Shown piece by piece: positions 28,501 to 45,893 of a stretch of DNA of 60,018 bases. Under the pieces are notes generated by a model. That model was not told where the DNA came from, made no database searches, and saw only the letters and a program-made list of their open reading frames with translations. Position numbers and translations under genes: made by a program. Origin of the DNA: a bacterium (lineage in GTDB: Bacteria; Margulisbacteria; Marinamargulisbacteria; JABIPA01). Numbering within the stretch: the first letter of the stretch is position 1; every line of letters begins with the position of its first letter. Location of the stretch: positions 1-60,018 of the forward strand of contig JABIQV010000001.1 of NCBI GenBank assembly GCA_018699495.1, read 5' to 3'.

Positions 28501-28992
28501 GAAACCAATGAAAGTATAAAATCGAACTCAGGTCAATTTGGAGTAAAAACCACGACGTTCTCACCAAGTTTAAATATAACGGAAGAGCTGAGCGATGGGG
28601 CCTATACAATCAACGTTGTGGCCTTCGATAATGGAATCAATTCAAGCAGCATGGAGAGCACATTTCTGATTGACGAAAGTGTACTGAGTATTGAAACGGT
28701 ATTTGGCCCAAATCCATGGGATCCTACCATTAAAGAATTAGTTATAGGAATTAACGCTAGCCAAACCATAGACTCCATTCAGGTATATATTTTTGATCAA
28801 CGTCAGCAAAAAATAATGGAAAAAACAATAGACTCTTTCGCGTTTATTGGCGGCGGCTATCATACTATCACTTGGGATGGCCAAACCTCGAATAACAACC
28901 TCGTCAAAAATGGACTCTATTACGGATATATACTTGTTAAATCAAACTCCGGAATCTACAAAGAAAAAATAAAAATCATGGTCTTAAAATAG
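25555..28992 (+). CDS. Secreted FG-GAP/integrin-alpha beta-propeller protein with Ig-like domains and a C-terminal FlgD-Ig/T9SS-CTD-like domain
   Basis: Seven D-x-N-G-D-type Ca loops (DINGNHKPD, DFNGDGIGD, DVNGDGFSD, DINGDGLDD, DINGDLFGD, DINGDNLQD, DFNQDYIDE); DNTNP and DKTAP Ig linkers; terminal GPNP...TWDG...NGLY...KIMVLK. Confidence 0.85.
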   Translation: MSIHKSFYSILLIFFLFLEQSSFSLSFSDNITEIKGTASRQYLGRNMVSISDINGNHKPDLLITAPEFNTSSGKYYIFFDYSLDDVSLSDTDADLQSTTGIEGSLFSKNIVGNGDFNGDGIGDFVIAIPEFSPQQLFLIAGDKDENINLVNASVSIISQETILNKGAELSSSLSLSGDVNGDGFSDLLIGADFSDSSVGTNTGSSFLLLGRDDMSSLLNLELNQSTTMNIEFIGSSEFEHFGYSVAILPDINGDGLDDIMISSFDHTSQFSKATYLFYGSKLTFDPSKTKQLLKAENADASFIHTSDSGFGDTVIGLGDINGDLFGDFAISAPFSDEGDGNIFIFLGGKGTPYSEKNMPAIEQSMTIQGTNQSSLGFHSLTRLGDINGDNLQDIGIGSYFSNNQKGEVYIFLGKTGFEKGSNLLVTLADITLTPDSTSERMGYSLSPGDDFNQDYIDEFFISARESGDVTDKMGILRAFSLRSNIIPTTIGPFSVFTDSARTSLATTVKNTDVLYLRIEANDPTSSTENIIQIVAEFETHSISVNMVETTTSSGIYEGAVRVSSGRSSKLLSQISADKGKPIKFTYDDATLATVDVINSTPEVVSFSISQSGIGSETSVELSYVVSDGNFDKFNFSESPSQIQQFNFIAEEWENLSDLDGALTNLSSSPRGITYSRANTVNVGNIEETIQIRIRPSDDEGLGAYFESNSIVVDNTNPSPPTLNSISTKSALNITVSGKAEPSSLVNVYRTNSSQDTWELTATTTADSQGDFMAFPVPLTDTLSFIAGKSVDSVGNESITSNVISVSFGTIDYGESSGQLSISFSLAKNTVTSDQTIDFLEIPTQNLEALTGPPPPFYSFESSFKIGDEKNSLSSSVLTTLTFTDILTSTSDIKLMIWSATSATWKEMEIKTISVGEISYNMSSFGYYSIIGLNDKTAPKISDLLINNMPINSTFYYTNTPFITVNIEDADSGVSSYSISLKNETNESIKSNSGQFGVKTTTFSPSLNITEELSDGAYTINVVAFDNGINSSSMESTFLIDESVLSIETVFGPNPWDPTIKELVIGINASQTIDSIQVYIFDQRQQKIMEKTIDSFAFIGGGYHTITWDGQTSNNNLVKNGLYYGYILVKSNSGIYKEKIKIMVLK

Positions 28993-29005
28993 AGGAATGT
29001 AATCA

Positions 29006-30523
29006 ATGCAATCGATAAAAACATCTAATAAACTAGCAACTCAATGTTTTATAATCTTATTTACAACCTGGATATGTTCGACTTCCATCACTTCAAATAC
29101 AGAGTTTTCAAGAAATGTATTTGACGCCAGTATCTCAGCGATTGGCGGGGCAAGCATAGGAAAAAAAGACCTTCCCTCAAGTATTTTCTACAACTGGGCA
29201 GCTCCTTCCAATAAAACAATGTCCATTATGTTTCAATCTGGTTCAATTTTAGACGCGCCTTATCTGGTATCTGCGGGTGAACTAAATTTGATAGTACCTT
29301 TTAGAATTGCATATCTTTCTCAAACTGACTCAAATATCCCTGAATCTATAATTAACGATCTTGGCATCCCTGAAATGACAAATGAGACAATGACTCAATC
29401 TTTCCAAGAGTTATTAGTCTCTTTCTCGCACAACGTAATGGGAATAGATGTTGGTTGGCTCTTAGATTACTCGTTTGAATCTCTTCACAAAGAAACCGGC
29501 CAGGCTATAAGTCTTGGCGTTGCTCTTAGAAAAGAGTTTCAATTCCTTGGAATAACGGGGGGCGTTGGAGTTAGTACAAGAGACCTAATTTCTGGAGGTC
29601 AGGTTTGGACAACTGGGTTAACCGAAGTAATTTCTCCGTTTACGGCAGTTGCTCTTGATATATTTTTAACAAAAGACATCCATGTTGTGACTGGTTTAAA
29701 AATCTCGAACGAGTACCCTCTTATATATAGCTTCGGATCTGAGTACTCAGTCTATCAATCCCCAGCCGCGACCGTGATTGCACGTGCTGGTCTTGAGACG
29801 GAAAATTTGAGACTTGGGCTTGGACTCAATTTTCAGGGATATCTACTCAACTATGCGTATTCCATGCAAAACTACTCATTTATTGAAAATGAACATCAAG
29901 TCTCATTTCAACTTAATCTAAACAAATTCCAACAAGTGTTTAATAAAAATTCTCACCAGAAGACTAATACCTTTCAGCATTTAAATACCCCCACATCACA
30001 AAAGTATAAAGTTGGTTTCAAAAATACCGAATCCCCTCAGTCTTCATCACTGTTTAACAACACAATTTCTTCATTAAAAAATCAAAAAACAGCCATTCCA
30101 ACAAAAAGATTATCACCCGAATTCTATAGTCTAAAACAAGCGCCTGAAAAAAACCTTCTACCCAGTGTTGCACCCCCTACTCTTGTTTTTTCGGCCCTTC
30201 TATCTAAAACAAAAAATAGCCAAAAACTAAAAATCGAGGAGTTCAACTCTATAGAAACTAAAAATATAAATAATGAAAATGACCAATTAATTAAAAAGCG
30301 AACATACCCTGTCCCATTTTTACTGGATTTTACATTTAACAAAAAAAGGTACAGTTTTGAGGTTTCTACTACTAAGACGGGGTACACAATTATTTCGGGG
30401 TCCCTCTCCAAAGGCGCAAAAATTCTTGTTCAAAATGAAATCTTACCCCTAAAGTCGAATCAATTATTCAAAAAGTTTAAGTTAGAAGAGACTCCTGTAT
30501 CAATCTTAATATTTTTCGAATAG
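29006..30523 (+). CDS. Putative PorV/PorP-like outer-membrane beta-barrel with an extra C-terminal soluble region
   Basis: Signal peptide; DASISAIGGA...SIFYNWA; barrel-end pattern FGSEY...ARAG...LGLGL...NYAYS...HQVSF; then a Ser/Lys-rich linker and a small domain. Confidence 0.6.
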   Translation: MQSIKTSNKLATQCFIILFTTWICSTSITSNTEFSRNVFDASISAIGGASIGKKDLPSSIFYNWAAPSNKTMSIMFQSGSILDAPYLVSAGELNLIVPFRIAYLSQTDSNIPESIINDLGIPEMTNETMTQSFQELLVSFSHNVMGIDVGWLLDYSFESLHKETGQAISLGVALRKEFQFLGITGGVGVSTRDLISGGQVWTTGLTEVISPFTAVALDIFLTKDIHVVTGLKISNEYPLIYSFGSEYSVYQSPAATVIARAGLETENLRLGLGLNFQGYLLNYAYSMQNYSFIENEHQVSFQLNLNKFQQVFNKNSHQKTNTFQHLNTPTSQKYKVGFKNTESPQSSSLFNNTISSLKNQKTAIPTKRLSPEFYSLKQAPEKNLLPSVAPPTLVFSALLSKTKNSQKLKIEEFNSIETKNINNENDQLIKKRTYPVPFLLDFTFNKKRYSFEVSTTKTGYTIISGSLSKGAKILVQNEILPLKSNQLFKKFKLEETPVSILIFFE

Positions 30524-30671
30524 AGTTCCCTTTTTGCTATTACATACACGACCACGCAAAATTTAGCTTTTGCCCTAGATTTAAGCATAAGCATTTAAAG
30601 GTTTAGCTTTCTAAAATTTTTTCTATTTATGTAGCCCTAAAAACATCCGAACTGTTTATATTGAACCATTA

Positions 30672-31298
30672 CTAATTAGTATCCCCATCAGATACCGCAT
30701 CAGCATCAATTTTCTTCTTAATTTTCATAATGGATGCTTTATAAATACGAGAAATTTGAGACTCGGAAATTCCGAATTTCCCACCAATCTCCTTAAATGT
30801 CATATCATTTTTTGTATGAAGAACTACTATTTTTTTTTCTCTATAATTCAAACCACTCATCGCTTGATTTAGCTGGATTCCCGTTTCGATCTGATTCTCA
30901 AAATCCGCCCTTTTGTTAATCGCCATAAATACATAAGCTGCGTCTGTAATCCAATCATAAAACCGAGTTGGATCCGACTTTGATATATATCGTATATGAT
31001 CTTTCATTGCCCCCAAAATTCGTCTCTGTGCCAATGGCCACACATCTGGGCATAATTCCGGGTCCCAAACCTTAATCGTCTCAAGAAACTCCAATTGAGA
31101 GATAGTCCTCAGATCATCGATTTCACTTTCCCCTACATACTTCGGTAAATACTTCACATAACGACGTAACACCATTTCTAAACGATTTGAAAAGGCGTCA
31201 ATGATGATAATGTCCCAAGTCTCAAGGAGAGATATTTTTATTGAGTTTAAAACAGGTTCACGAATCGATTCCCAAATACCTTTTGTTTCTTTCTTCAA
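30672..31298 (-). CDS. FliA/WhiG (sigma28)-like RNA polymerase sigma factor lacking region 3
   Basis: Region 2 LPKYV..DDL...DP...RILGAMKDHIR; region 4 TFKEIG..GISESQISRI; only 208 aa. Confidence 0.8.
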   Translation of the reverse strand: MKKETKGIWESIREPVLNSIKISLLETWDIIIIDAFSNRLEMVLRRYVKYLPKYVGESEIDDLRTISQLEFLETIKVWDPELCPDVWPLAQRRILGAMKDHIRYISKSDPTRFYDWITDAAYVFMAINKRADFENQIETGIQLNQAMSGLNYREKKIVVLHTKNDMTFKEIGGKFGISESQISRIYKASIMKIKKKIDADAVSDGDTN

Positions 31299-31299
31299 A

Positions 31300-31563
31300 T
31301 TAAAGGTTCAACTTTTTCATTATTTTGTCTAACAAGTTGGCCTCGTTAATGTAGCTCATTTTATCCTCAGAGAATAATGCTTTGCATACATCTCTATATA
31401 AATTTGACACGTTTTCTCTGAGCTCAGATTTGACGGTAGTATCTTTAATATTTAACTTTTTAAGCTCATAATTAATTTTTCGTTTCTCAGAATCCTCAAC
31501 CCCATGCCTTTTCCTATAAATACTTTGGGGAACTTTTTTGACATAAAAATTATCGTCTGTCAT
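31300..31563 (-). CDS. Small hypothetical protein, possibly an FlgM-like anti-sigma factor
   Basis: 87 aa, coupled between flhA and the sigma gene; C-terminal YINEANLLDKIM loosely resembles FlgM Y-x-ID-x-x-x-IA-x-K-x. Confidence 0.5.
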   Translation of the reverse strand: MTDDNFYVKKVPQSIYRKRHGVEDSEKRKINYELKKLNIKDTTVKSELRENVSNLYRDVCKALFSEDKMSYINEANLLDKIMKKLNL

Positions 31564-33647
31564 TACATTTCATCTGAACTAATAACCCCAATAGACTGAA
31601 CTTTTACCTGAGGTACAATTTCATTATAAGACAGAACCGCAAGAAAGGGATAATTTCTCTCTGTAAACTTTTTGAAATGTGTTCGTAACCGCGGAGAGCA
31701 AAGTGAGACAGGTGGTTTTTCCATTTTTCTGAAATTAGACATATGTTCACCTACTTGGCTCAAAACTTTTTCACCAACCTGAGGGTCCAGGGCTAAAAAG
31801 CTACCGTATTCCGATTGGTGAATAGAATTAATCATGGTTTCCTCTAATCTAGGATCAATCGTAAAAACTGTAATCGTATCGTCCTTATCCATATATTTAC
31901 TGCATATTTGTCGTGATAACGATTGTCTCACATATTCTGCCAATAAATTTGTATCCCTAGACACATGCGCATAATCCGCTAATCGTTCCAAAATAGTTGA
32001 AAGGTCTCTAATCGAAACACGTTCCTTAACCAACGCTTGAAGAACCTTATGCACCTGCCCTAAAGAAAGCATATCCGGAACCAACTCCCGAACAATAGCG
32101 GCATTAGAACTTTTAACTAACTCCATTAATGATTGTACATTTTGACGCGTAATAATGTCATCCGCATTTTGCTTAATGACCTCTGAAAAATGATTCGATA
32201 TGAAATCCGTAATATTCTGAGCTGCTATTACATTTTCTTGAAGCCTTTCAATTTGGTCTTCTGAAACCCATGCTCCAGGCTGTAAATTAGTAGGATCTAC
32301 TGCCTCTATTCCGTTTATACCTTTTCTCTTGAGTTCAGCCGAGGTTCGCTGTACAAAAAAATGTCCTGGAAGGGCCTCTCCCAATGCGATCCTTGTACCT
32401 CGAATATCCATTTGATATTGGTTAGGGGGAAGACTCAAATCATCCATTACTCGAACACCTGGTATAACAAACCCTAATTCTTGTCCAATGTGGTAGCGTA
32501 CCAATGTAATTCGTTCTAATAAAGGGCCATTTTGACTCGGATCAATTAACGGAACCAAATTCCGACCAGTTTTCATACTGATTGGATCTAACGCTAGGGT
32601 TCCAAGTAAATTTTCAGGTTTTTTCATCGCATCTTTTGCCGATTCTTGTCCAGAATCTACATTTAACTCTTCTTCTTGTTTTTGTTTTCTTAAAATCACG
32701 TAGGAAAGACAAGCCACCCCTCCAGATATTGCCAGGAAAGGTACCGTAGGCAACCCAGGGACGATTGCAAATAAGAGTAAAATGAAAGATGTAACAGCAA
32801 ATGCTTTTGGCTGTGTAAAAATTTGTGCCGCTATATCTTTTCCTAGACTTTCTGCAGATGCCGACTTAGTAACAACCAAACCTGTTGCGATTGATATTAA
32901 AAGTGCAGGAACCTGAGAAACAAGACCATCACCAATCGATAGCGTTGTAAAAATTTTAGCCGCCTCTCCTGCCGCTAACCCTTGCATAGCAACCCCAATG
33001 GCTAAACCACCTACAATATTAATAATCATGATGATGATACCCGCAATAGCATCCCCTTTAACAAATTTATTCGCACCATCCATAGATCCAAAAAATTGAG
33101 ATTCTTTGCCTAACTTCTCTCGTCTGTCTTTTGCCTGACTAGCATCAATCAATCCCGCATTTAAATCCGCATCAATACTCATTTGTTTACCAGGCAACGC
33201 ATCAAGGGTAAACCTCGCAGCAACCTCAGCAACCCGTTCTGATCCTTTTGTAATTACCATAAATTGCACCAAAGTAATAATACAAAAGGCGACTATCCCT
33301 ACAACAAAATTTCCTCCAGTAACAAACTCCGCAAAGGCAATAACCACCGTCCCATCAAATTTCTTACCTAAGCTCAAAATTAATTTTGTGGATGCAACGT
33401 TAATAGATAGCCGGTAAAGAGTTACCACTAACAACAGGGAAGGGAATGCTGCAAAATCTAACGGTTCCGCCAAGTACATAGCTATTAAAAGAATAGAAAC
33501 CGAAACCGCAATATTAAGAACCATTAAAATATCTAGAAGTGCAGAAGGAATGGGAACGATCATTAACGTCATAATCAATATAAGTACAATAGCCAACAAT
33601 ACGTCGGCTAAGGTAAACAGTTCTTTTAAAGTGCTTAATTTCATCAT
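31563..33647 (-). CDS. flhA: Type III export gate FlhA; probable start ATG 33647
   Basis: FHIPEP motif ITKGSERVAEVAARFTLDALPGKQMSIDADLNAG, FFGSMDGANKFVKGDAIAG, IGDGLVSQ, ERVSIRD, VLSYNEI. Confidence 0.97.
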   Translation of the reverse strand: MMKLSTLKELFTLADVLLAIVLILIMTLMIVPIPSALLDILMVLNIAVSVSILLIAMYLAEPLDFAAFPSLLLVVTLYRLSINVASTKLILSLGKKFDGTVVIAFAEFVTGGNFVVGIVAFCIITLVQFMVITKGSERVAEVAARFTLDALPGKQMSIDADLNAGLIDASQAKDRREKLGKESQFFGSMDGANKFVKGDAIAGIIIMIINIVGGLAIGVAMQGLAAGEAAKIFTTLSIGDGLVSQVPALLISIATGLVVTKSASAESLGKDIAAQIFTQPKAFAVTSFILLLFAIVPGLPTVPFLAISGGVACLSYVILRKQKQEEELNVDSGQESAKDAMKKPENLLGTLALDPISMKTGRNLVPLIDPSQNGPLLERITLVRYHIGQELGFVIPGVRVMDDLSLPPNQYQMDIRGTRIALGEALPGHFFVQRTSAELKRKGINGIEAVDPTNLQPGAWVSEDQIERLQENVIAAQNITDFISNHFSEVIKQNADDIITRQNVQSLMELVKSSNAAIVRELVPDMLSLGQVHKVLQALVKERVSIRDLSTILERLADYAHVSRDTNLLAEYVRQSLSRQICSKYMDKDDTITVFTIDPRLEETMINSIHQSEYGSFLALDPQVGEKVLSQVGEHMSNFRKMEKPPVSLCSPRLRTHFKKFTERNYPFLAVLSYNEIVPQVKVQSIGVISSDEM

Positions 33648-33648
33648 A

Positions 33649-34716
33649 TTATTGGTAGGCTCGTTTCTTTTTAAGATTATACACAAATGCTAATATCTCT
33701 GCTACCAGCTTGTAATATTCTGGAGGCACTTCCGCATTAACTTCTGTAATTGGATATAGCGCTTGAGCGAGAAGGGGGTTTTCAATTATTGGAATATTGT
33801 TTTCAAGTGCAAGTTGCTTAATTTGCTTCGCTACTAGCCGCTTTCCCTTTGCCACCAATACAGGGGCTCGCATACTATTATGCTTATACCGAATAGCTAA
33901 TGCGATATACACAGGATTTGTGACAACAACATCAGCTCCCGGAACAGACCCCATTTGTCGTCCCTGAGACATTTGTCTAGCCGCATCTTTCTGTCGTTGC
34001 TTAATTTGAGGGTCCCCTTCAAGCCGTTTGTACTCATCCTTTATTTCTTTTTTTGACATTTTCAACCCTTTTATATGTTCGTGCTTTTGATATAAATAAT
34101 CAAAAATTGCAATGACAAAATATAATCCAGCCAGCCGATTTATCACCTTTACAACCAAATGCCCTGTGAATTCCATTAACTGCCACAACGATAACTGTTG
34201 CCCAAGCAATACCATGAAAAACTCATCCTTAATTGCCCCGTACAACAACATTATGACCAAAGTCATCTTAATAAGAGACTTCGCTAGCTCAACATACTGC
34301 TTAGCTGAAAAAAACTTTTTAACACCTTCTAAAGGGTTTAGCTTCGACAATTTAGGAATTAAAGGATCCCCTGAAATCAAAAACCCAGTTTGTAAGGCCT
34401 CTATAATTAAGGCTACAATGGTATTTGTTACTAAGATTGGTAGCAAACAAGCAAAGCTAGTTGTCAAGACGTATCGGAGAAGAACGCCTACAGTAGCGGC
34501 ACTAAACTCTTCAGGAATTTGTCCAAAAGTATAATTTGATAGATTTGCTATCCGATCCCACATGGATTTAGCCGTCGCCTTAAAAATGGCAAAAGCGACA
34601 ATCATCAAGACAGCGCCAGTTATTTCCTTGCTTTTTGCTATTTGACCTTTTTTTCTTGCCTCCCTCATTTTATGAGGGGTAGGCTCTTCGGTCTTTTCTG
34701 CTGAATCGTCTCCCAT
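33649..34716 (-). CDS. flhB: Type III export switch protein FlhB (NPTH replaced by NPVY)
   Basis: EKTEEPTPHK, KGQIAKSKE, LKMSKKEIKDEYKRLEGDP, VVTNPVY, AP..VAKG, VAEILAFV. Confidence 0.95.
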   Translation of the reverse strand: MGDDSAEKTEEPTPHKMREARKKGQIAKSKEITGAVLMIVAFAIFKATAKSMWDRIANLSNYTFGQIPEEFSAATVGVLLRYVLTTSFACLLPILVTNTIVALIIEALQTGFLISGDPLIPKLSKLNPLEGVKKFFSAKQYVELAKSLIKMTLVIMLLYGAIKDEFFMVLLGQQLSLWQLMEFTGHLVVKVINRLAGLYFVIAIFDYLYQKHEHIKGLKMSKKEIKDEYKRLEGDPQIKQRQKDAARQMSQGRQMGSVPGADVVVTNPVYIALAIRYKHNSMRAPVLVAKGKRLVAKQIKQLALENNIPIIENPLLAQALYPITEVNAEVPPEYYKLVAEILAFVYNLKKKRAYQ

Positions 34717-34737
34717 AGGTTCCTTTTAATTACTAAA

Positions 34738-35508
34738 TTATAACTGCATCAAATATAACACTCGAATCGTGTGTTCCGTTAAATCTTCCAACATTATAAA
34801 TATACTTTGAATCATTCCTGGTGCAATAGCCAAAAATATTATTAAACTAATCGTTGGCTTTAATTGAAACCCTAATTGAAATACATTAACCTGTGGCGCT
34901 ACACGACTTAACATTCCAAATGAAAAATCGACTAAAAAAACAATCAATAATATAGGAACCGAAAGTTGAAGAGCCAGTCCAAATAAGTCCGTCCCTAAAT
35001 TGGCAATATACTTCCCTGCCAAAGAAAAATTAGGAATAACACCGATCGGAATCAAAGAAAAACTTTTATGCACCATCGCTATTACCATATGATGTCCGTT
35101 AATTTGCAAAAACATCATTATGGATGTCCATTCCAATAAAAGTGATATTAGCGTACTTGTTCTCCCTGTTAAGGGGTTTAACAAGGAGGCTACACTCAAC
35201 CCGGCCTGGGTATCCATTAAGGAGCCTCCAAATTCAATAGCAACCAAAATTGCCTCTGACACAAAGCCTATAGTGACTCCAATTAATACCTCTACAACCA
35301 ATGCAAGTACAAACGTAATTAAAGTATCTGGAGGAGTGATAGGTAAAGGAACCAAAAATACGAGTAACGTAGACGCCCAAAAAATTAGCGTAACTTTGCT
35401 CATTGCAAATACTTGCTTTTTATTAAAAAACGGAGCTACTGTAACCATACCTGCAAGTCTGCCAAACACTAAAAAAAAGGCAGTTAATTGTGTAAGTGTA
35501 AAAACCAT
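34738..35508 (-). CDS. fliR: Type III export protein FliR
   Basis: R-x-x-G...APFF, GSLMDTQAGL, NGHH, RVAPQVNVF. Confidence 0.95.
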   Translation of the reverse strand: MVFTLTQLTAFFLVFGRLAGMVTVAPFFNKKQVFAMSKVTLIFWASTLLVFLVPLPITPPDTLITFVLALVVEVLIGVTIGFVSEAILVAIEFGGSLMDTQAGLSVASLLNPLTGRTSTLISLLLEWTSIMMFLQINGHHMVIAMVHKSFSLIPIGVIPNFSLAGKYIANLGTDLFGLALQLSVPILLIVFLVDFSFGMLSRVAPQVNVFQLGFQLKPTISLIIFLAIAPGMIQSIFIMLEDLTEHTIRVLYLMQL

Positions 35509-35511
35509 TTT

Positions 35512-35781
35512 CTATTGTGAATAAAGCGGAATATTTTCCCAAAGACCTAAAGCCATTTCCATGACCAACCGGGACATCCATGGGAAGGTAGCCCCTATCA
35601 CTATCATTACCACAACCATTTTAGGAACAAACGTAAGTGTTTGTTCTTGAATTTGCGTAACAGCTTGAAAAACTGCAACAATTAGCCCTATAGCCAACCC
35701 CAATCCTACGCTGGGCATCGACACAAGCAATGTTACTTGTATTGCCTGATTCAAAATAGCTGTTACTGTATCTATATTCAT
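35512..35781 (-). CDS. fliQ: Type III export protein FliQ
   Basis: FQAVTQIQEQTLTFVPK, PWM. Confidence 0.97.
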   Translation of the reverse strand: MNIDTVTAILNQAIQVTLLVSMPSVGLGLAIGLIVAVFQAVTQIQEQTLTFVPKMVVVMIVIGATFPWMSRLVMEMALGLWENIPLYSQ

Positions 35782-36536
35782 TGAAAGCTTATTAATAAAC
35801 CTCTAATAATTAAATTCCACCCGTCTGTTAAAACAAACAATAAGATCTTAAATGGAAGAGAGATCATTGCAGGAGATAACATAAACATTCCTAAAGATAA
35901 CAAGATATTTGAAACGATAAGGTCAATAACGACAAACGGAATAAATAATAAAAATCCAATCTGAAATGCAGTTTTTAATTCAGAAATCACAAACGCTGGT
36001 ACCAACACGAAAATTGGGACCTTTTCATAATCATTTACACTCTTCATTTGAGAAAACTCGAGAAACAGGGCTAAATCTTTATCTCTAATAAACTTCAGCA
36101 TAAAATTCCTAAAAGGCTTTGCTCCCAATTGAATCGCTTCATTTTGAGAAATTTTTCCCGATTTATAAGGTTTAACTGCTGACTCATTGACTTCATTCCA
36201 TGTCGGTGTCATCACAAATATAGTCATAAACATCGCAAGCGCAATGATAATGGGGCTAGGAGGACTAGACTGAGTTCCAATAGCCTGTCTTATCATGCTC
36301 AGAACAATAACCGTCCTTAAAAAGGATGTCGTAGATATTAGAAAAAAGGGAATTAACCCAATAGAAGATAAAGCAATAAGTAAATTAATAGTTGATGTGA
36401 ACCCTGATGGTTTTAAAATTGTTTCTATGTCTAATCCCGAAAAAGGTCCGGCTCCAATTTCTTGGGCAAGCACAATCGACGGTATAAAAACGATTAGAAA
36501 GGTAATAAACTTAACAAATTTATTTTTCATTAACAA
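35778..36536 (-). CDS. fliP: Type III export protein FliP
   Basis: TSFLR, RQAIG, PAFVISELKTAFQIGF, LGMFMLSP, PFKILLFVLTDGW; cleavable signal peptide as in flagellar FliP. Confidence 0.97.
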   Translation of the reverse strand: MLMKNKFVKFITFLIVFIPSIVLAQEIGAGPFSGLDIETILKPSGFTSTINLLIALSSIGLIPFFLISTTSFLRTVIVLSMIRQAIGTQSSPPSPIIIALAMFMTIFVMTPTWNEVNESAVKPYKSGKISQNEAIQLGAKPFRNFMLKFIRDKDLALFLEFSQMKSVNDYEKVPIFVLVPAFVISELKTAFQIGFLLFIPFVVIDLIVSNILLSLGMFMLSPAMISLPFKILLFVLTDGWNLIIRGLLISFQ

Positions 36537-36776
36537 TTAAACCCACTTGTGCAATACCTCTATAGACTTAGAATTACTTGCCACAAGAACCTTAATATTA
36601 TTACACTCCAAGTATACCAAAGAAGAATTTGAATCGACTGGCATTCTATCCAGAATTTTTATGTCCCCAGAAAACTTCTTTCTATATATCCCCTTAGTAA
36701 ACTTCTGTATAATAAACAGCATTCCAATGAGTACACCAAGCGTTAAGATTACTTGAATGTAATAAGAAGTGGCCAT
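36537..36776 (-). CDS. fliO: FliO-like chaperone
   Basis: One TM followed by an IKILDRMP...LV beta-rich domain; lies between fliN and fliP. Confidence 0.8.
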   Translation of the reverse strand: MATSYYIQVILTLGVLIGMLFIIQKFTKGIYRKKFSGDIKILDRMPVDSNSSLVYLECNNIKVLVASNSKSIEVLHKWV

Positions 36777-37196
36777 TTATTTTTCTGACGACAAGATATT
36801 AGTAACTCTTAGGCCATAATTATTGTCAATCGCGACCACTTCTCCCTGAGCTATAGTTTGACCATTGACGACTAAGTCTAACGGCTCTCCGACTAATCTC
36901 TCTAGCTCTATTATTGACCCTTCAGAAAGTTCGTAAACTTCTTTTAAAGATAGATTAGAACGTCCAAGTTCAACAGAAACACTAACAGGGATGCTACTAA
37001 AAATATCCTGTTCTAAAACAGACGACCCTTCTATACTTGCCAATTTGGGAAATTGAATATTGGATACATTTGGAGCGGCTACAGAGCGAGTTGGATCTTC
37101 CTCTCTACTCGACACTTGAGGGTCCATAGAAAAAGCTTGTTCCATTATCGGGTCAATATCTTCTAAGGGATCTTTAATACCGGAATTATTTGTCAT
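36777..37196 (-). CDS. fliN: C-ring protein FliN
   Basis: IPVSVSVELGR, GSIIELERLVGEPLDLVVNG, GEVVAIDNNYGLRVT. Confidence 0.95.
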   Translation of the reverse strand: MTNNSGIKDPLEDIDPIMEQAFSMDPQVSSREEDPTRSVAAPNVSNIQFPKLASIEGSSVLEQDIFSSIPVSVSVELGRSNLSLKEVYELSEGSIIELERLVGEPLDLVVNGQTIAQGEVVAIDNNYGLRVTNILSSEK

Positions 37197-37929
37197 ACTC
37201 GAGCACCTCTTTCACTAATTTTAAATAATCTTCTGCGCCATTTGATTCGGGATCATACTCAAAAACCGTCTGCCGATATCCTGCCGCTTCAGATACAGCA
37301 ACATTTACTCTTACTGGACTCGTTATTAATCCTGGAAAAACACGTTCCAGACTCGACAAGATTTCTTTTGATTTGTTGTTACGTTTATCAAACAAAGTTG
37401 GAATTACTTTAGAAATCTTTACGTTTCTTCGGAATATTCTATTAATGATTTTGATATTGTTCAATAGTTGTTTTACACCAACAAGAGACAAATACTCCAT
37501 TGAAACAGGAACCCAAAGTTCATCTGAAAAAACTAAAGCGTTTTGACTAAACAAACTCATCGATGGTCCACAATCTACCAGAACAAAGTCATACCCCGTT
37601 AAGGAGTCAAACTTTTCTAAAAATATTTTTTCTTTGTTTTTTCTACTGGAAAGCACAATAGATGCTGGAAACATCCTTTCATTAGAACATATAATATCAA
37701 TATTCTGCCGTGATTTTTCAATACATTGCTCAGGAGTCTTATTTCCCATAACAATATCATAAAGTGTATGTTTAGGATCAACCCCCAAATGGTAACCAGC
37801 AGAGCCCTGAGGGTCAGTATCAATAACCAAAACTTTTTTTCCCTTTAAAACTAGTCCATGGGCAATATTGATAACAGTACACGTCTTACCAGTTCCTCCC
37901 TTATAATTAATGACTGAAATTTTTTTCAT
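37186..37929 (-). CDS. ParA/Soj family ATPase
   Basis: Deviant Walker A NYKGGTGKT, IDTDPQG, DCGPS, VPVSMEYLSLVG, TLFDKR, VSEAAG. This is Soj-like (DPQ, DCxPS), not FlhG/MinD-like. Confidence 0.92.
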   Translation of the reverse strand: MKKISVINYKGGTGKTCTVINIAHGLVLKGKKVLVIDTDPQGSAGYHLGVDPKHTLYDIVMGNKTPEQCIEKSRQNIDIICSNERMFPASIVLSSRKNKEKIFLEKFDSLTGYDFVLVDCGPSMSLFSQNALVFSDELWVPVSMEYLSLVGVKQLLNNIKIINRIFRRNVKISKVIPTLFDKRNNKSKEILSSLERVFPGLITSPVRVNVAVSEAAGYRQTVFEYDPESNGAEDYLKLVKEVLEYDK

Positions 37930-37935
37930 AATATT

Positions 37936-39402
37936 TTAAAACTCGTCGTCTAAATCGTCCCAAGAAAAATCGTCATCCGCCTCGCTATCAGAATCTTCTA
38001 CTACATCTTCAGTTTCCTCGACTCCTCCAGTTTCAGGAATGGGAGGTTCTTCAAGAGTCGCGGTTGATTCTTTAACTTCTTGGTTGAGAGCGTCTTCCTC
38101 TTCAATCAAAGAATTTTCCAATACCGGTTTAGCCCCTACTTCTGGCACGTCCCGGATATCGGAAGAACCGATTCCGTTAGTATCTAAATCGTCCGATACG
38201 CTTGCCTGAACCGTCTTAGCAGGAGCTGTGCCAAATGAACCAACAGCATCCTCTAAAACATTATCTTCGACTGGTCCGGCAGGTGACGTTACCGTCGGAT
38301 TCAGTGTCGTTGTTTCAGTATTTGACAAATCTTCGCAATCAACAGATTTTATTTCCGAATAATCAGAAATCGACTTATCTTGTCTTAGTCGTTGTGATTC
38401 TACTTCGGACTTTTCAACCATATGAACGTCCGACTTGGCAATTTTATCAGAGTCACGCAAGTCAACGATTTGTACAGCTATCTGATCATTTATTATGCCA
38501 ACCTGTCCGGTAACAGCCGTTTCTCCACCAATTAAAACCTGTATAGGCGTTTCAAGAGTAGATTTCAAGGGAATAACATCACCAATTTGTAGCTCCATTA
38601 ACTCCTTCATGGTTAAACTAGCATCCCCAATCAATGCCTTTACAGGTATATTAATCCGTTTTTCTGTTTCAGAATTTAGTTTGATTCTTCGTTTTGTAGG
38701 GGTAACCTTGGACTTCTTTAACTTTAGTAAATGCTTTAAAACGCTATTTGGATAAGCAAAGGTGATCGTGTGCAAATTTTGATCAATAAAATAAAAATTA
38801 AGAGAAAATAATACATACGCTTCTCGATAGGAAAGCTTCTTATCTTGAGCATACGTACCACTTGAAAACTCATCCGACACATTTTGGTCGCCCAATATAT
38901 TTCCCCAACTATCATTAAACAGAGGGATAATTTCCTCTAGTTGTGTTTTCAATATTTTGAGTTCAATTTCACCAAATTTTTCGCGTCCATCAGGAACGCC
39001 TTGTCCACCCAATAACCGGTCGACGAGCATTTCCGAAAGAGCCCAATCCAAAATCACGTCCATTTTTCCTAAGTCATTTAATAAATATTTAGACTGAACG
39101 ATCTGCTCTTGCTGACTATCAAGAAACTCTCCATAACGCATCTGTTTAGCCTCAACAGAATGCAACTCAACTTTAGCAGTCAAGTCATTTGATAGTTTTT
39201 TTGTAATAAGCTCTGCCAAGCGATAGTGCAACATATGAACTATTTTCATTTCATCCCTTGGCAAACTATCGAAATTAATATTTCGAACAGAGGAAATATT
39301 AATTTCATCTAAATCAAGATCTTTAAATTGAATGGTCGTCCAATCTCCAATCGCAGGTCCTAATTTAATATTACGTGTGTATTTAAACTGTGTGCTACCC
39401 AA
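37936..39402 (-). CDS. fliM: FliM-like C-ring protein with a long acidic C-terminal tail
   Basis: CheC-like middle domain (YGEFL, VDRLLGGQG, GEIE), SpoA domain (LQIGDVIPL), then about 170 aa of acidic tail; RBS AAGGGGAG. Confidence 0.85.
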   Translation of the reverse strand: MGSTQFKYTRNIKLGPAIGDWTTIQFKDLDLDEINISSVRNINFDSLPRDEMKIVHMLHYRLAELITKKLSNDLTAKVELHSVEAKQMRYGEFLDSQQEQIVQSKYLLNDLGKMDVILDWALSEMLVDRLLGGQGVPDGREKFGEIELKILKTQLEEIIPLFNDSWGNILGDQNVSDEFSSGTYAQDKKLSYREAYVLFSLNFYFIDQNLHTITFAYPNSVLKHLLKLKKSKVTPTKRRIKLNSETEKRINIPVKALIGDASLTMKELMELQIGDVIPLKSTLETPIQVLIGGETAVTGQVGIINDQIAVQIVDLRDSDKIAKSDVHMVEKSEVESQRLRQDKSISDYSEIKSVDCEDLSNTETTTLNPTVTSPAGPVEDNVLEDAVGSFGTAPAKTVQASVSDDLDTNGIGSSDIRDVPEVGAKPVLENSLIEEEDALNQEVKESTATLEEPPIPETGGVEETEDVVEDSDSEADDDFSWDDLDDEF

Positions 39403-39516
39403 AATAATTCTCCCCTTTTAACGCCATCTACGGCATAGGTATCTTTGACCAAAAAAAAACAAATCAACTTAATTAAGTACCATCACTGGTAATTATACCC
39501 AGTTTCAGCCCATTTT

Positions 39517-40215
39517 TCATTCTATTTCTTCTGAATCAGACTCATCATCGTTATGATCGCGGCTGCTATCTGATTCATTCTGCCCCTCTTGGAAACGACT
39601 ATCGTCTACCAAGTTTAAGTCCATATCTATCTCTTCACTATTGGTAGTTTTAAGATAGGCATATAAATTATTTAACTCCGGCTTAAGTATATCATATAGT
39701 TGCTTGTTTACATTTAATTTAATTTCAAGCCCCTTCTCTGATTTTTTAATTGAAATTTCTAAGGGGATATCCCGTTTATCAAAGGAGAATTTATACTGTG
39801 TGCCTTCAGATTTTTGAACCTCTACAATAGCTTTATTTAAAACCTCTTTTACGAACTGAGTTAAGTCTCCTATCGAGATTGGCAATGCATCTATCTGATA
39901 AAACATTGAAGCCAAGGTTTGAATTTTATTCGATGCTGACTTTTTCAAGGCCTTACTATCCGACGATTTTTCACTACTTTCAGAATGTTTCGCATCCTTT
40001 GTCGTCTTTCGATCGATTTCTTCAGGATCCTGATTTTCAGAATCCATCCTGTAGGACCCATCGAGATTTTTCTCAATGCTAGAGAAATCTTTTAATGGCT
40101 TTGCTTTTTTCTCGGTAAATAGTTCGAGAAACCCTTCGCCTTCGTAGTTCACATCCAGAGATGATACTAAATTTGGTACATATTTCGCCAATTTTAATTG
40201 AACCTCAAAATCCAC
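39517..40215 (-). CDS. Putative FliK/SctP-like length-control protein (short)
   Basis: Disordered charged middle region; C-terminal beta-beta-beta-alpha pattern (FSFD..PLEISIKK..GLEIKL....ILKPELNNLYAYL) typical of the T3S4 domain; operon context. Confidence 0.55.
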   Translation of the reverse strand: MDFEVQLKLAKYVPNLVSSLDVNYEGEGFLELFTEKKAKPLKDFSSIEKNLDGSYRMDSENQDPEEIDRKTTKDAKHSESSEKSSDSKALKKSASNKIQTLASMFYQIDALPISIGDLTQFVKEVLNKAIVEVQKSEGTQYKFSFDKRDIPLEISIKKSEKGLEIKLNVNKQLYDILKPELNNLYAYLKTTNSEEIDMDLNLVDDSRFQEGQNESDSSRDHNDDESDSEEIE

Positions 40216-41292
40216 TTATTTTTCCTTTTTTAATTTTTCTTGAGTTTCTTTTTTTATTTTGTATCGATAGCCATCGAATACTTGACCTAATTTTTTCGAA
40301 TATTTACCCTGTTGAATAAAATCACGTCTTAATGGGAATCTTTGTTGAAGTTCCAAACCATACTTCTCTGCTAATTGTTCAATAGTCATGTCACGGGGTT
40401 TGTCTTTACAGACGTAGGATGCCGAACATCCTTCATACAACCTACCCAAATCTCTTATCCCCAATTTCAAAAAGGGTTCGTAGTTAGGATTACTTTCGAA
40501 AGGAACAATTACCTTCACCGCCCCCTTGAAGGAATCTAAAGCATATTCAGTTGTTTCGATCATTAATTTTTCATCTGCTACCGAGTGATTATGAAATTTG
40601 GTACCATCTTGAGGAACAAAATTCTGAATAACGAATTCATGAATCATTCCGAATTCATTATGCAAATCTCGAATTTTATCTATCATCTGCTTTCGATGCG
40701 TCTTTGACTCACCTATTCCGACTAAAAGACCTGTTACCACAGGAAGCTTGAGCTTAGACGACCACTCGATTTGTTTCAATCGTAAATCCATTTTTTTTCC
40801 TGGTGATTCTGGGTATATATTTGAAAAGTTTCTCTGATCGACTGTATCCAGCATAATTTTTGAAAGAGCACATGTCTGCGCCAATTTTTTGATTTCGTCA
40901 GGACTTAAAAATCCGAGCTCAATAACGGGAATAAGCCCCTCTAAAAACCCGAGTTCACAAATCGTATAAACATAATCAGAGTAAGTATCAAACCCCCATA
41001 AATCCAAAGTCGCTCTTACCTGAGAGTATTTGTCGGGTCTCTCACCTGCCACATATACGGCTTCCCTTGCACCACTTAAACGTGCGTCCCTTGCAATCTT
41101 AATTGTAGAATAAGGAACAACAATATTGTCCTTTCTATGAAAACTACAATAAGGACAATTATTTCTACACATTCTAGATAAAACGACTGACGTTGCTTTA
41201 GAATAAGCAAGTACATTATCTCTATCTTCACCTAAAACCTGTATATCATTTTCCTTATCATTACTATTACCTAACGCGTACCCAACAACCAT
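40216..41292 (-). CDS. Radical SAM protein, divergent CofG (FO synthase subunit 1)-like
   Basis: CRNNCPYC (CxxxCxxC), AYSK, GERP, SPGK...RL, TGLLVGIGES, VIQNF, GIRDLG; RBS AAGGAG. Confidence 0.8.
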   Translation of the reverse strand: MVVGYALGNSNDKENDIQVLGEDRDNVLAYSKATSVVLSRMCRNNCPYCSFHRKDNIVVPYSTIKIARDARLSGAREAVYVAGERPDKYSQVRATLDLWGFDTYSDYVYTICELGFLEGLIPVIELGFLSPDEIKKLAQTCALSKIMLDTVDQRNFSNIYPESPGKKMDLRLKQIEWSSKLKLPVVTGLLVGIGESKTHRKQMIDKIRDLHNEFGMIHEFVIQNFVPQDGTKFHNHSVADEKLMIETTEYALDSFKGAVKVIVPFESNPNYEPFLKLGIRDLGRLYEGCSASYVCKDKPRDMTIEQLAEKYGLELQQRFPLRRDFIQQGKYSKKLGQVFDGYRYKIKKETQEKLKKEK

Positions 41293-41421
41293 TGTATCTC
41301 CTTAACTAAAACGACTACCCAATCTCACCAACGTAAATATATTAATTTGAGTATGTTATGCTACAATAGAAACATAATTAGAGCAATATTATGTAAAAAT
41401 TAAATTAGTGCAAGGTCCAAA

Positions 41422-42498
41422 ATGAGTAGAACTAAATATATTGTCGACTTAAAGCAATACGGAAATAATATAAAAAATATTAGAGAATCTCTAAATCCCA
41501 CAACAAAGATTCTTCTCACTCTAAAATGTGACGCATATGGTCTAGGGGCAGTCAAGCTAGCAGAAGTGGCTGAGAAACAAAATGTAGCGTACTTTGGAGT
41601 TGCTTCGATAGAAGAGGCTCTTGAATTGAGAGAAGCTGGAATCGAAACGAATATACTTTTGTTTTCTGAGCCTTTTTTAGACGACTTAAAAAAGATCGTA
41701 ACGTTAAATATCACCCCGACGTTATTTAAACCGTCTAGTGCATACCTCCTTAATGAAATATCTAAAAAGAAAGGGATAATAACAAATTTTCATTTTAAAC
41801 TAGATACGGGCATGGCAAGAAATGGAACAAACCCGGAACAAGCATATACAGACATACAATACATTTTAAATCTTCCTTACCTTAAACTCGAAAGCATCTA
41901 TACACACATATCAGACGGATCAAAACCCTACTCAAGTTATACTCACAATCAAAATAGGCAATTTGTAAAATTTATTCAAAAAGTAAAACTATTATCAAAA
42001 AATTCTTACACAATCCACATAGCAAACTCAGACACTACGTTGAATTTTCCTCAATACCAATACGATATGGTTCGAATTGGTCTTCATTCATATAGACATA
42101 TTATGACTTTGATGAGTAAAGTTCTCCTCTTAAAATTAATGGATTTGGGAGATTTCATTGGATATGAACGATCCTATACTCTTAAAAGGAAAGCTATAAT
42201 CGCCATAATTGCAATAGGGTATGGAGACGGAATTCCCTATCAGCTTTCTAATAAAGGTACCGTATTAATAAACGGTATTGAATACCCTATAGTAGGAAAA
42301 GTATGTATGGATCATATTATGGTGAATCTAGGCCCAAATAGTGGCAAGGTTTCCGAAGGGGACGACGTTGTCATAATAGGAAAACAAAAACAACAACAAA
42401 TTTCTCTGGAAAAGGTCGCCCGCATATCCGGCAACATCCCTTATTCAATCATGACTGGAATATCTAAACGTGTCCCTCGTGAATATGTAAGTAACTAA
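41422..42498 (+). CDS. alr: Alanine racemase
   Basis: KCDAYGLG (PLP Lys), EALELR, KLDTGMAR, HIANS, MVRIG, IGY, GYGDG, GKVCMD. Confidence 0.9.
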   Translation: MSRTKYIVDLKQYGNNIKNIRESLNPTTKILLTLKCDAYGLGAVKLAEVAEKQNVAYFGVASIEEALELREAGIETNILLFSEPFLDDLKKIVTLNITPTLFKPSSAYLLNEISKKKGIITNFHFKLDTGMARNGTNPEQAYTDIQYILNLPYLKLESIYTHISDGSKPYSSYTHNQNRQFVKFIQKVKLLSKNSYTIHIANSDTTLNFPQYQYDMVRIGLHSYRHIMTLMSKVLLLKLMDLGDFIGYERSYTLKRKAIIAIIAIGYGDGIPYQLSNKGTVLINGIEYPIVGKVCMDHIMVNLGPNSGKVSEGDDVVIIGKQKQQQISLEKVARISGNIPYSIMTGISKRVPREYVSN

Positions 42499-42594: not shown

Positions 42595-42712
42595 TCTTGG
42601 CCACGACCAACTCTCCCACCAGGGTAACCCGGAAGTACCATAGGCGCTGAAGGACTTAACTACTGTGTTCGGAATGAGAACAGGTGTACCCCCTTCGCTA
42701 TAATGACCAAGA
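42595..42712 (-). rRNA. rrf: 5S rRNA
   Basis: ACACCUGUUCUCAUUCCGAACACAG and GGUACU...GGGAGAGU conserved blocks; terminal helix extended by a perfect 20-bp flanking inverted repeat (42581-42600 / 42707-42726). Confidence 0.97.
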
Positions 42713-42815
42713 TAAATACTCATATGGTTCAACAACTTGGCATTGTTGAACTTGCATTGATACCGAAACTTAGATTTGCCAACCGTCTTGATTTATTATT
42801 CATAGGCCGTTTTAA

Positions 42816-45804
<2,989 letters not shown>

Positions 45805-45893
45805 AAACGGCCCATGAGTAATAAATCATTTCAAATTGAAACAACTTCAAATTGGCAATTTTATTTTCTTAAGATTCTAAATTTCGATATCAA

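Follow-up and report, generated by a model that had tools for sequence, protein, structure and literature searches.

The 60,018-nucleotide contig JABIQV010000001.1 of assembly GCA_018699495.1 (GTDB lineage Margulisbacteria; Marinamargulisbacteria; JABIPA01), referred to below as the window, carries a run of flagellar-type III export genes on its minus strand. We consider it probable that this run is the C-ring and export-gate operon of a filament-less hook-basal-body machine, which is derived from the flagellum and would export substrates other than flagellin. The machine would comprise an MS ring, FliM/FliN, a FliOPQR-FlhBA gate, a FliH/I/J ATPase complex, a rod, P and L rings, a FliK ruler and a small FlgE-like hook protein. 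It would represent an old, separate machine lineage kept in nearly all Margulisiibacteriota, while the canonical flagellum, with flagellin, FlgK, FlgD, FliD, FliS, FlhF/FlhG and chemotaxis, would be a second, separate system in a few families. A first-pass annotation of the window had proposed either an exapted flagellar export apparatus independent of injectisomes or a highly atypical flagellum, and gene content, distribution and the FlhA tree supported that proposal.

The window is the whole of contig C148 of a metagenome-assembled genome (MAG), G000, of 2,098,716 bases in 171 contigs with a completeness of 85.52%. Because this MAG is incomplete, a five-genome panel was used, consisting of G000, the same-genus G026 (91% complete), the same-class G028 (95%), G129 (from another class and closed in one contig, 98%) and G058 (a flagellin-bearing control of the same phylum, 99%). 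A phylum survey covered 146 species genomes including G000; 72 were of high quality and 55 belonged to the window's class. The genes of the operon were called from a list of open reading frames (ORFs) together with Pfam and NCBIfam hidden Markov model (HMM) searches. The gene run described in the first-pass annotation proved to be real, and 11 of its 13 gene calls were confirmed by HMM. The 13 minus-strand ORFs extend from 41292 down to 30672, and their junctions overlap or are at most 21 nt apart, with the single exception of 114 nt between the 488-aa fliM and a 232-aa ORF. The genes are as follows.

30672..31298, minus strand: divergent FliA/WhiG-like sigma factor, 208 aa, final gene of the run (Sigma70_r4, 42.4 bits)
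31300..31563, minus strand: conserved 87-aa protein (alignment A1, 19 sequences; no Pfam or NCBIfam match)
31563..33686, minus strand: FlhA export-gate protein, 707 aa, of a phylum-specific lineage (FHIPEP, 820.9 bits)
33649..34716, minus strand: FlhB, 355 aa (Bac_export_2, 376.6 bits)
34738..35508, minus strand: FliR, 256 aa (Bac_export_1, 185.4 bits)
35512..35781, minus strand: FliQ, 89 aa (Bac_export_3, 85.9 bits)
35778..36536, minus strand: FliP, 252 aa (FliP, 253 bits; hydrophobic signal-like N-terminus)
36537..36776, minus strand: FliO, 79 aa (PF04347, 23.4 bits, cut-off 22; TIGR03500, 35.6 bits, below cut-off)
36777..37196, minus strand: FliN, 139 aa (FliMN_C, 83.8 bits; TIGR02480, 96.1 bits, above cut-off)
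37186..37929, minus strand: ParA/Soj-type ATPase, 247 aa, between fliM and fliN (AAA_31, 150.7 bits)
37936..39402, minus strand: FliM, 488 aa (FliM PF02154, 45.7 bits, and FliMN_C, 62.2 bits; TIGR01397, 102.3 bits, below cut-off)
39517..40215, minus strand: acidic 232-aa ORF of no family (no meaningful Pfam or NCBIfam match)
40216..41292, minus strand: CofG-like radical SAM enzyme, 358 aa (radical SAM, 32.3 bits; NF004884, 210.7 bits, cut-off 209)

All six gate proteins (FlhA, FlhB, FliP, FliQ, FliR and FliO) scored above the Pfam cut-offs, and the window FlhA was the sole FHIPEP match in G000. FliP had the signal-like N-terminus noted in the first-pass annotation. The C-terminal tail of FliM is long and acidic, with 47 D/E against 10 K/R in the final 168 residues. 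The ORF list agreed with the annotation that flgD/flgE, motAB/fliL, cheY/fliY and flhF/flhG are absent from the run. Synteny, which had been proposed for checking in relatives, was kept across related loci. Contigs of four metatranscriptome libraries from two studies matched the window at ≥95% identity, mostly ≥99%, and one of 1,188 bases covered the end of fliP, fliO, fliN and parA. RNA-library contigs of runs X3 and X4 left parts of the window bare; contigs cannot show absence, and no reading was drawn from this.

The HMM searches of G000 gave no match for flagellin (PF00669, Flagellin_N) or for FlgK, FlgD, FliD, FliS and CheW. Likewise, phmmer searches with three flagellins, FlgK, FlgD, FliD and CheW of relatives against 5977 G000 ORFs (≥50 aa) returned nothing at E ≤ 10. 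Within the panel these six families were present in G058 only, and none was found in G000, G026, G028 or the closed G129; a complete set of hook, filament, stator and chemotaxis genes was thus not found elsewhere in the genome. Flagellin was also unmatched in G129 and G085, each closed in one contig, and in G145, which has 4 contigs. The annotation had allowed that the genes missing from the run could lie elsewhere. This was borne out for hook-like, rod, ring, ATPase and stator genes, and failed for flagellin, FlgK, FlgD, FliD, FliS and CheW.

The remaining parts of the machine lie on other contigs of G000. Contig C69 encodes, on one strand, FliK, a 158-aa paralogue of the FlhB C-terminus, an FlgF-like protein, FlgG, FlgA, FlgH, FlgI, a 130-aa ORF, a FliA-like sigma factor, FlgB, FlgC, FliE and FliF, and stops 14 nt past fliF. 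The FliK of 413 aa matched Flg_hook at 32.2 bits. Rod and ring proteins were clear for FlgH (151.6 bits), FlgI (342.2 bits) and FliF (158.6 bits), as well as for FlgG and FlgA; FlgB, FlgC and FliE were weak (19-20 bits), yet stand in the expected order. Contig C14 carries FliH and FliI (TIGR01026, 601.6 bits), and FliJ (PF02050, 31.1 bits, above cut-off) is encoded on the strand of fliI some 1.2 kb further downstream, past one plus-strand ORF. A 290-aa protein of the FlgE/F/G subfamily is encoded on contig C107 (TIGR03506, 110.2 bits, cut-off 70.25); its best models were FlgE ends, and no FlgE equivalog cut-off was reached. As a query, this FlgE-like protein had a match at E ≤ 1e-8 in 130 genomes; in the most distant ones the matching protein could be a rod paralogue. 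G000 has a single secretin, which is encoded on contig C120 and not near the flagellar loci.

Two MotAB sets with plug and OmpA-type domains were found in G000. The first, on contig C51, consists of MotA and MotB with an adjoining 186-aa FliM-like protein (the MotA and MotB Pfam calls were taken from same-genus orthologues). The second is at C129 11785-14725 (locus L104 5786-8726), where a 483-aa FliG_C protein is followed by a MotA/MotB pair and rho adjoins. In the 483-aa protein, a signal-like N-terminus, a membrane segment and FliG_C were recognized, along with a stretch weakly resembling the FliF C-terminus. A three-domain FliG of 351 aa lies beside MotAB in the same-genus genome G026 and was not recovered in G000, where it is probably missing through a contig gap.

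The closed genome G129 displayed the machine in two clusters. The first reads fliK (251 aa)-flgE-like-fliM-fliN-fliO-P-Q-R-flhB-flhA-sigma, and the second flgF-flgG-flgA-flgH-flgI-orf93-fliA-flgB-flgC-fliE-fliF-FliG-fliH-fliI-fliJ. The FliG of G129 is 159 aa long with N and M domains only, and the whole genome had no FliG_C and no MotB_plug match. Similarly, the ORF after fliF in G026 is a 243-aa protein with weak FliG_N and FliG_M only and without FliG_C, and many FliG_M matches across the phylum sit in ORFs of 150-245 aa. In G099, a 100% complete genome of another class, the genes for a 495-aa FliG_C-type protein, MotA and MotB immediately precede flgE-like-fliM-...-flhA-sigma, all on one strand, so this stator module is tied to the machine wherever the module exists. 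As read from gene content, the common denominator of the phylum is a hook-basal body with its export apparatus, and the torque parts are optional.

The phylum survey gave the same division. FHIPEP (FlhA) was present in 135 of the 146 genomes (70 of the 72 of high quality) and FliG_M in 128 (66), while flagellin was found in 15 (11), FlgK in 13 (10), FlgD in 11 (10), CheW in 23 (17) and MotB_plug in 59 (27). Flagellin and FlgK occurred together in 13 genomes, G057-G069, of four families (f31-f34), each with two or three FHIPEP matches, and all 11 FlgD-positive genomes fall among them. The 55 genomes of the window's class included flagellin in 1, CheW in 2 and MotB in 42. Beyond this class MotB was found in 17 of 91 genomes; 13 of these were the flagellin-bearing genomes, leaving 4 of 78.

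The panel control G058 showed both systems side by side, so the genes missing from the window operon are hallmarks of the other, canonical system. Its canonical locus reads flhA-flhF (an SRP54-type GTPase)-flhG-fliA with CheW nearby, and its window-type locus reads flhA-orf121-sigma. G058 has two FliI proteins above 600 bits, and the canonical cluster carries FliF, FliG, FliI, FlgG, FlgH, FlgI, FlgK and flagellin-family genes on one contig.

An FlhA/SctV tree of 51 rows was built with IQ-TREE (LG+G4, SH-aLRT). It comprised the window, 22 single-copy genomes, both copies of 9 flagellin-bearing genomes, 3 sequences of cyanobacterial sister groups and 7 named references only, namely 4 flagellar FlhA and 3 SctV from plasmid records. 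The window-type FlhA formed one clade of 32 rows (SH-aLRT 100, stem 0.41), which takes in every single-copy genome and the lower-scoring copy of the 9 flagellin-bearing genomes. The higher-scoring copies of the latter formed their own clade (SH-aLRT 100), joined to the reference flagellar FlhA (95). The 3 SctV rows were split from the 48 FlhA rows (SH-aLRT 100); rooting on SctV is a convention. Its place in this tree marks the window FlhA as a flagellar-type and not an injectisome protein, one that stands outside the ordinary flagellar sequences sampled; the placement among ordinary flagellar sequences that would have counted against the first-pass reading was not seen, as the protein belongs to a phylum-specific clade apart from the flagellin-linked copy. 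Window-type FlhA was 59-99% identical across 77 Margulis-type loci, of several classes by their titles. Relatives in this range were mostly labeled Candidatus Marinamargulisbacteria, Margulisiibacteriota, Saganbacteria or WOR-1, with a few under other labels, and those at 46-47% identity were titled Sericytochromatia, Blackallbacteria and Cyanobacteria UBA7694.

We further analyzed the genes that distinguish the operon. In the sigma factor, region 4 alone was recognized, and the best NCBIfam models were region-4 parts of FliA/WhiG, below their cut-offs. In 58 of 80 related loci, flhA is followed by a co-directional sigma homologue, and alignment A2 of this family had a mean column identity of 57%. 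The 87-aa ORF beside it, listed in the first-pass annotation, is a real conserved gene; alignment A1 showed an N-terminal F/Y-x3-(V/I)PQSxYR motif and a C-terminal LG(L/I). Complex prediction for the sigma factor and the 87-aa protein gave a score of 0.85, and the best of three controls gave 0.00. Of 80 solved complexes 58 attained this mark, compared with 2 of 110 mismatched pairs; these counts are a rough guide only because custom alignments were used. The runs agreed in at least 72% of contacts, with a partner pLDDT of at least 68. The predicted interface involves residues 30-85 of the 87-aa protein and the N-terminal part of the sigma factor, leaving free the conserved N-terminal motif of the 87-aa protein. 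The 87-aa protein is thus a predicted sigma-binding partner and a candidate anti-sigma factor, analogous to FlgM.

The ParA protein has the deviant Walker A motif KGGTGKT; no NCBIfam equivalog was reached, and the top models were ParA/RepA types below cut-offs. Its paralogues in G000 are just 35% and 26% identical. The first-pass annotation had counted two foreign genes inserted in the run. parA is not a recent foreign insertion, being a class-wide feature found between fliM and fliN in 20 of the 42 related loci that hold both genes. Among the 22 loci without parA, 20 are more distant (FlhA identity 59-69%) with short fliM-fliN gaps, and the remaining pair are closer relatives (72% and 77%), whose gaps, of 734 and 1,367 nt, may hold a parA too divergent to match. 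The FlhG of G058 matched the window ParA best in G000, though weakly (37.4 bits; a Soj-like paralogue, 34.0 bits). By eye, the C-terminus of the window ParA appears Soj-like with no obvious amphipathic membrane helix. A phmmer search with G058 FlhF against G000 ORFs gave no match at E ≤ 1e-3; it also missed every SRP GTPase and so says little.

FlhB of the window carries TNPVYIALAI, with NPVY in place of the usual NPTH autocleavage motif. Across 60 related loci the motif was NPTH in 35, NPIH in 12, NPVH in 10, and NPFH, NPVY and NPVF in one each, the N-P pair being invariant. NPVY is peculiar to the species lineage of the window, and the near-identical locus L002 alone has it too. The annotation had held each regulatory interface to be altered; this stands for FlhB, the sole interface checked, with NPVY in 1 of the 60 related loci.

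Candidate outer parts were found near the FlgE-like gene. At C107 259-7772 (locus L087), G000 encodes five uncharacterized proteins of 88, 108, 914, 362 and 587 aa, and the 290-aa FlgE-like gene is last in this operon. The large proteins are rich in lysine and glutamate. The same five genes lie between the flhA-sigma operon and the FlgE-like gene in G028. The 108-aa family occurs in 30 of the 146 genomes, all of the window's class, and has a 112-117-aa paralogue; at least 14 genomes have it at a distance of about 6 kb from the FlgE-like gene, on a shared contig and strand. The 88-aa family (A3) comes in 1-3 tandem copies of 86-90 aa, and the model of the 88-aa protein was a two-helix hairpin (pLDDT 69). 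When the 88-aa and 108-aa families were used as PDB profile queries, the best E-values were 0.18 and 0.15. Foldseek of the 88-aa model returned 0 matches at E ≤ 0.001, with needle chains just among generic hairpins at E of about 2-4, and the best ESM Atlas score for the 914-aa protein was 0.84, under the useful range. The small helical-hairpin and large lysine-rich proteins are probably the late substrates of this class, and we treat them as leads rather than findings.

Alongside the observed gene content, distribution, phylogeny and synteny, we infer non-flagellin export, a sigma/anti-sigma logic and a role for ParA as follows. Assembly would proceed as in the flagellar hook-basal body, and FliK and FlhB would then switch export toward late non-flagellin substrates. 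The sigma factor of the operon may be held by its 87-aa partner, as FlgM holds sigma-28, which would tie late expression to assembly. The ParA-type ATPase may place or count the machines.

The main alternative, which we regard as unlikely, is an atypical motility organelle, that is, a propeller of non-flagellin subunits or hook protein driven by MotAB without chemotaxis. It is favored by the two plug- and OmpA-bearing MotA/MotB sets of G000, the 186-aa FliM-like protein adjoining one of them, the three-domain FliG beside MotAB in the same genus, the FliG_C-MotA-MotB genes immediately upstream of flgE-like-fliM...flhA in G099, MotB in 42 of 55 class genomes and the 413-aa length of FliK. The class-specific operon points the same way: 1-3 tandem 86-90-aa two-helix proteins and 102-117-aa paralogues accompany the flgE-like gene in at least 14 genomes, and tandem paralogous small subunits are typical of filament proteins. 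However, MotB occurs in only 4 of 78 genomes beyond the window's class and the flagellin-bearing families, and the closed G129 keeps a strongly conserved machine without FliG_C or MotB, so rotation cannot be the common function of the machine. Further, searches for the caps (FlgD, FliD), the junction (FlgK) and the chaperone (FliS) found none, CheW is present in just 2 of 55 class genomes, and the hairpin model is of moderate confidence with non-specific fold matches. Because stator and FliG C-domain modules are still present in the window's class, rotation is possible there; as far as the genes indicate, it is not required phylum-wide.

An ordinary flagellum whose late genes were lost from MAGs, since variable flagellin islands assemble or bin badly, is highly improbable, and the closed genomes already largely refute it. 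Such a loss would fit the 171 contigs and 85.5% completeness of G000, the frequently repetitive nature of flagellin loci and the end of C69 at 14 nt past fliF. Against this, the closed G129 and G085 and the 4-contig G145 are outside the 15 flagellin-positive genomes, and G129 is also without FlgK, FlgD, FliD, FliS and CheW. Late genes that are not variable are rare too (FlgK in 13 of 146 genomes, FlgD in 11 of 146), and flagellin and FlgK were recovered easily in 13 MAGs of f31-f34, each with a second FlhA.

That the run is the functionless, decaying remnant of a flagellum since lost is scarcely credible: the late genes are gone, NPVY replaces NPTH in the FlhB of this species and FliG is truncated in many lineages, but every ORF is intact and tightly coupled, FlhA is 59-99% identical across 77 loci and present in 70 of 72 high-quality genomes, gene order is kept, conservation extends to the class-specific additions (parA, orf87, the hairpin operon), and the operon was found in RNA libraries.

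Several points weigh against a filament-less export machine as the explanation of the run. The stators and FliG_C proteins of the window's class (MotB_plug in 42 of 55) suit a rotating organelle no less well than a device for secretion alone, and FliK and the FlgE-like protein also belong to an ordinary flagellum. Within the genus, the three-domain FliG together with the small post-fliF FliG was seen in G026 alone and not in G000. The absence calls are limited by the sensitivity of HMM and phmmer searches, which a very divergent filament protein would escape, and the 85.5% completeness of G000 weighs on them as well. There were two flagellin exceptions, G007 (a match on a 1,986-base contig) and G126 (a 59-bit partial match in a single-FlhA genome). 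In an AU test, a tree joining all 41 Margulis FlhA rows was not rejected (p = 0.246), and because of this value an old duplication and a transfer are both possible origins of the two FlhA lineages. The score of the sigma complex is a measure of model confidence and not of binding, and solved sigma/anti-sigma complexes could lend it their likeness. RNA-library contigs also fall on the flanking genes, so DNA carry-over is possible and these contigs weakly support expression. The machine is known here from its genes.

The exception in G126 is at G126:C4:62270-62632, in a 253-aa ORF with the 59-bit partial Flagellin_N match; this genome has window-type FlhA only and is the sole unexplained exception to the rule that flagellin accompanies a second FlhA.

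The filament-less machine was compared with known systems. The injectisome is a flagellum-derived export apparatus without flagellin or chemotaxis that keeps a FliM/FliN-type sorting platform, an ATPase complex and a ruler/FlhB switch. The machine described here resembles it in that no flagellin gene and, as judged by CheW, no chemotaxis genes were found, in that some classes are also without the FliG torque domain and stators, and in that the FliM/FliN-type platform, ATPase complex and ruler/FlhB switch are kept. Unlike the injectisome, its FlhA lies on the flagellar side of the SctV split, FliO, the FlgB/C/F/G rod and the FlgH/FlgI rings are kept, there is no secretin at the locus, and no needle, tip or translocon families were recognizable. 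The canonical fla/che-type operon of Bacillus or spirochaetes reads fliM-fliY-...-fliPQR-flhB-flhA-flhF-flhG-...-sigD. The window operon shares the fliM-fliN-fliO-P-Q-R-flhB-flhA-...-sigma backbone with the sigma gene last. It differs from this operon, and from the canonical locus of G058, in having the 87-aa predicted sigma partner after flhA in place of flhF/flhG. It also differs from the canonical operon in the ParA-type ATPase between fliM and fliN, in the lack of che genes in the run, and in that no flagellin regulon was found.

Schepers et al. (2021, PMC8109811) describe Buchnera aphidicola as keeping, expressing and assembling basal-body and flagellar type III export clusters with no known motility function. 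Basal-body and export genes are likewise retained here. However, Buchnera is a reduced insect endosymbiont with the remnant of an enterobacterial flagellum, whereas the machine studied here is spread phylum-wide through largely free-living aquatic lineages, has its own FlhA clade, stands beside a full second flagellum in 13 genomes, and has gained parA, orf87 and the hairpin operon. According to Fulano et al. (2020, PMC7688988), strain OH11 of Lysobacter enzymogenes, which bears no flagella and has no functional fliC, expresses a flagellar type III secretion system (T3SS) and is reported to export non-flagellar proteins; the same source has this bacterium still exporting the hook cap FlgD. FlgD was not found here, and the Lysobacter case is a recent loss in one genus, in contrast to the old lineage-wide state in this phylum. 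By comparison of genes and trees, the machine is set apart from the known cases by its phylum-wide vertical coherence, its separate FlhA lineage, its co-existence with a true flagellum and its lineage-specific additions.

Other features of the run and its surroundings were also examined. The 232-aa ORF had been labeled fliK-like in the first-pass annotation, a label without support, as neither Pfam nor NCBIfam searches found a FliK signature. This candidate was rejected because no Flg_hook or other meaningful match was obtained and a genuine FliK with Flg_hook lies on C69; in tblastn the ORF matched the near-identical locus L002 only. The radical SAM call was correct, the enzyme being CofG-like, and the gene is not inserted in the run but stands at its 5' edge. 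Of the 31 loci with sufficient upstream sequence, 14 have a co-directional homologue upstream of fliM, and the gene is probably only a conserved neighbor of the run. Only one weak paralogue (25% identity) is present elsewhere in G000. In many of the relatives L003-L027, the tblastn matches to fliP and fliQ start about 1.6-1.8 kb apart versus about 0.75 kb in the window, pointing to an additional gene or a considerably longer FliP in those loci.

The run is flanked by alr on the opposite strand and by a 5S-23S rRNA pair. The 5S and 23S rRNA genes are at 42595-45805 (minus strand), and no 16S rRNA match was found across the 60-kb contig, so the rRNA genes appear to be unlinked. At 25555-30523 (plus strand), convergent to the sigma gene, lie two genes, one for an FG-GAP-repeat protein of 1145 aa whose C-terminus weakly matches FlgD_ig and Big_6, the other for a 505-aa protein of no family. 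This pair recurs just beyond the sigma gene in six related loci (L002, L009, L024, L060, L068 and L074) at 22-77% identity. Both proteins were rejected as type III substrates because they have Sec-type hydrophobic signal-like N-termini. A sigma-70 promoter and terminator scan of 30300-41600 was uninformative, with 34 promoter-like sites versus 36.5 expected and 7 terminator-like sites versus 6.9. A sigma-28-like promoter pattern gave 29 sites in a scan of G000, none within 10 kb of a flagellar gene, and provided no lead to late genes.

A further-reaching interpretation, which we put forward tentatively, is that the phylum holds a second, independent flagellum exaptation parallel to the injectisome. 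Such a machine would have been inherited vertically, would long since have shed chemotaxis and the filament with its junction and caps, and would in several classes have shed the FliG torque domain and stators as well. Marinamargulisbacteria would have evolved a new appendage, a polymer of tandem 86-90-aa hairpin subunits assembled with 102-117-aa paralogues and the large lysine-rich proteins of the hook-gene operon, with dedicated ParA positioning and a private sigma/anti-sigma pair. The literature searched on the phylum contained no account of such a machine, only passing flagellar mentions, with none found in the two main genome papers on the group, and the Termititenax genome paper or Margulisbacteria supplements may mention the genes. 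To our knowledge, no case other than the injectisome is accepted in which a flagellum became a different machine. Flagellar export machines that persist without the filament are known from single lineages, namely Buchnera and Lysobacter.

A filament-less flagellar apparatus is thus present in 135 of 146 species genomes of a phylum sister to the Cyanobacteria group, with a normal flagellum beside it in 13. Should this apparatus work in secretion or at the cell surface, it would be a natural second experiment in flagellum repurposing, with intermediate states still alive, with and without stators and with full or truncated FliG. It would alter the reading of "flagellar genes present" in MAG surveys, which is often scored as motility, and it supplies concrete candidate new T3SS substrates, as well as a candidate new sigma/anti-sigma pair, from marine bacteria that are abundant and uncultured.

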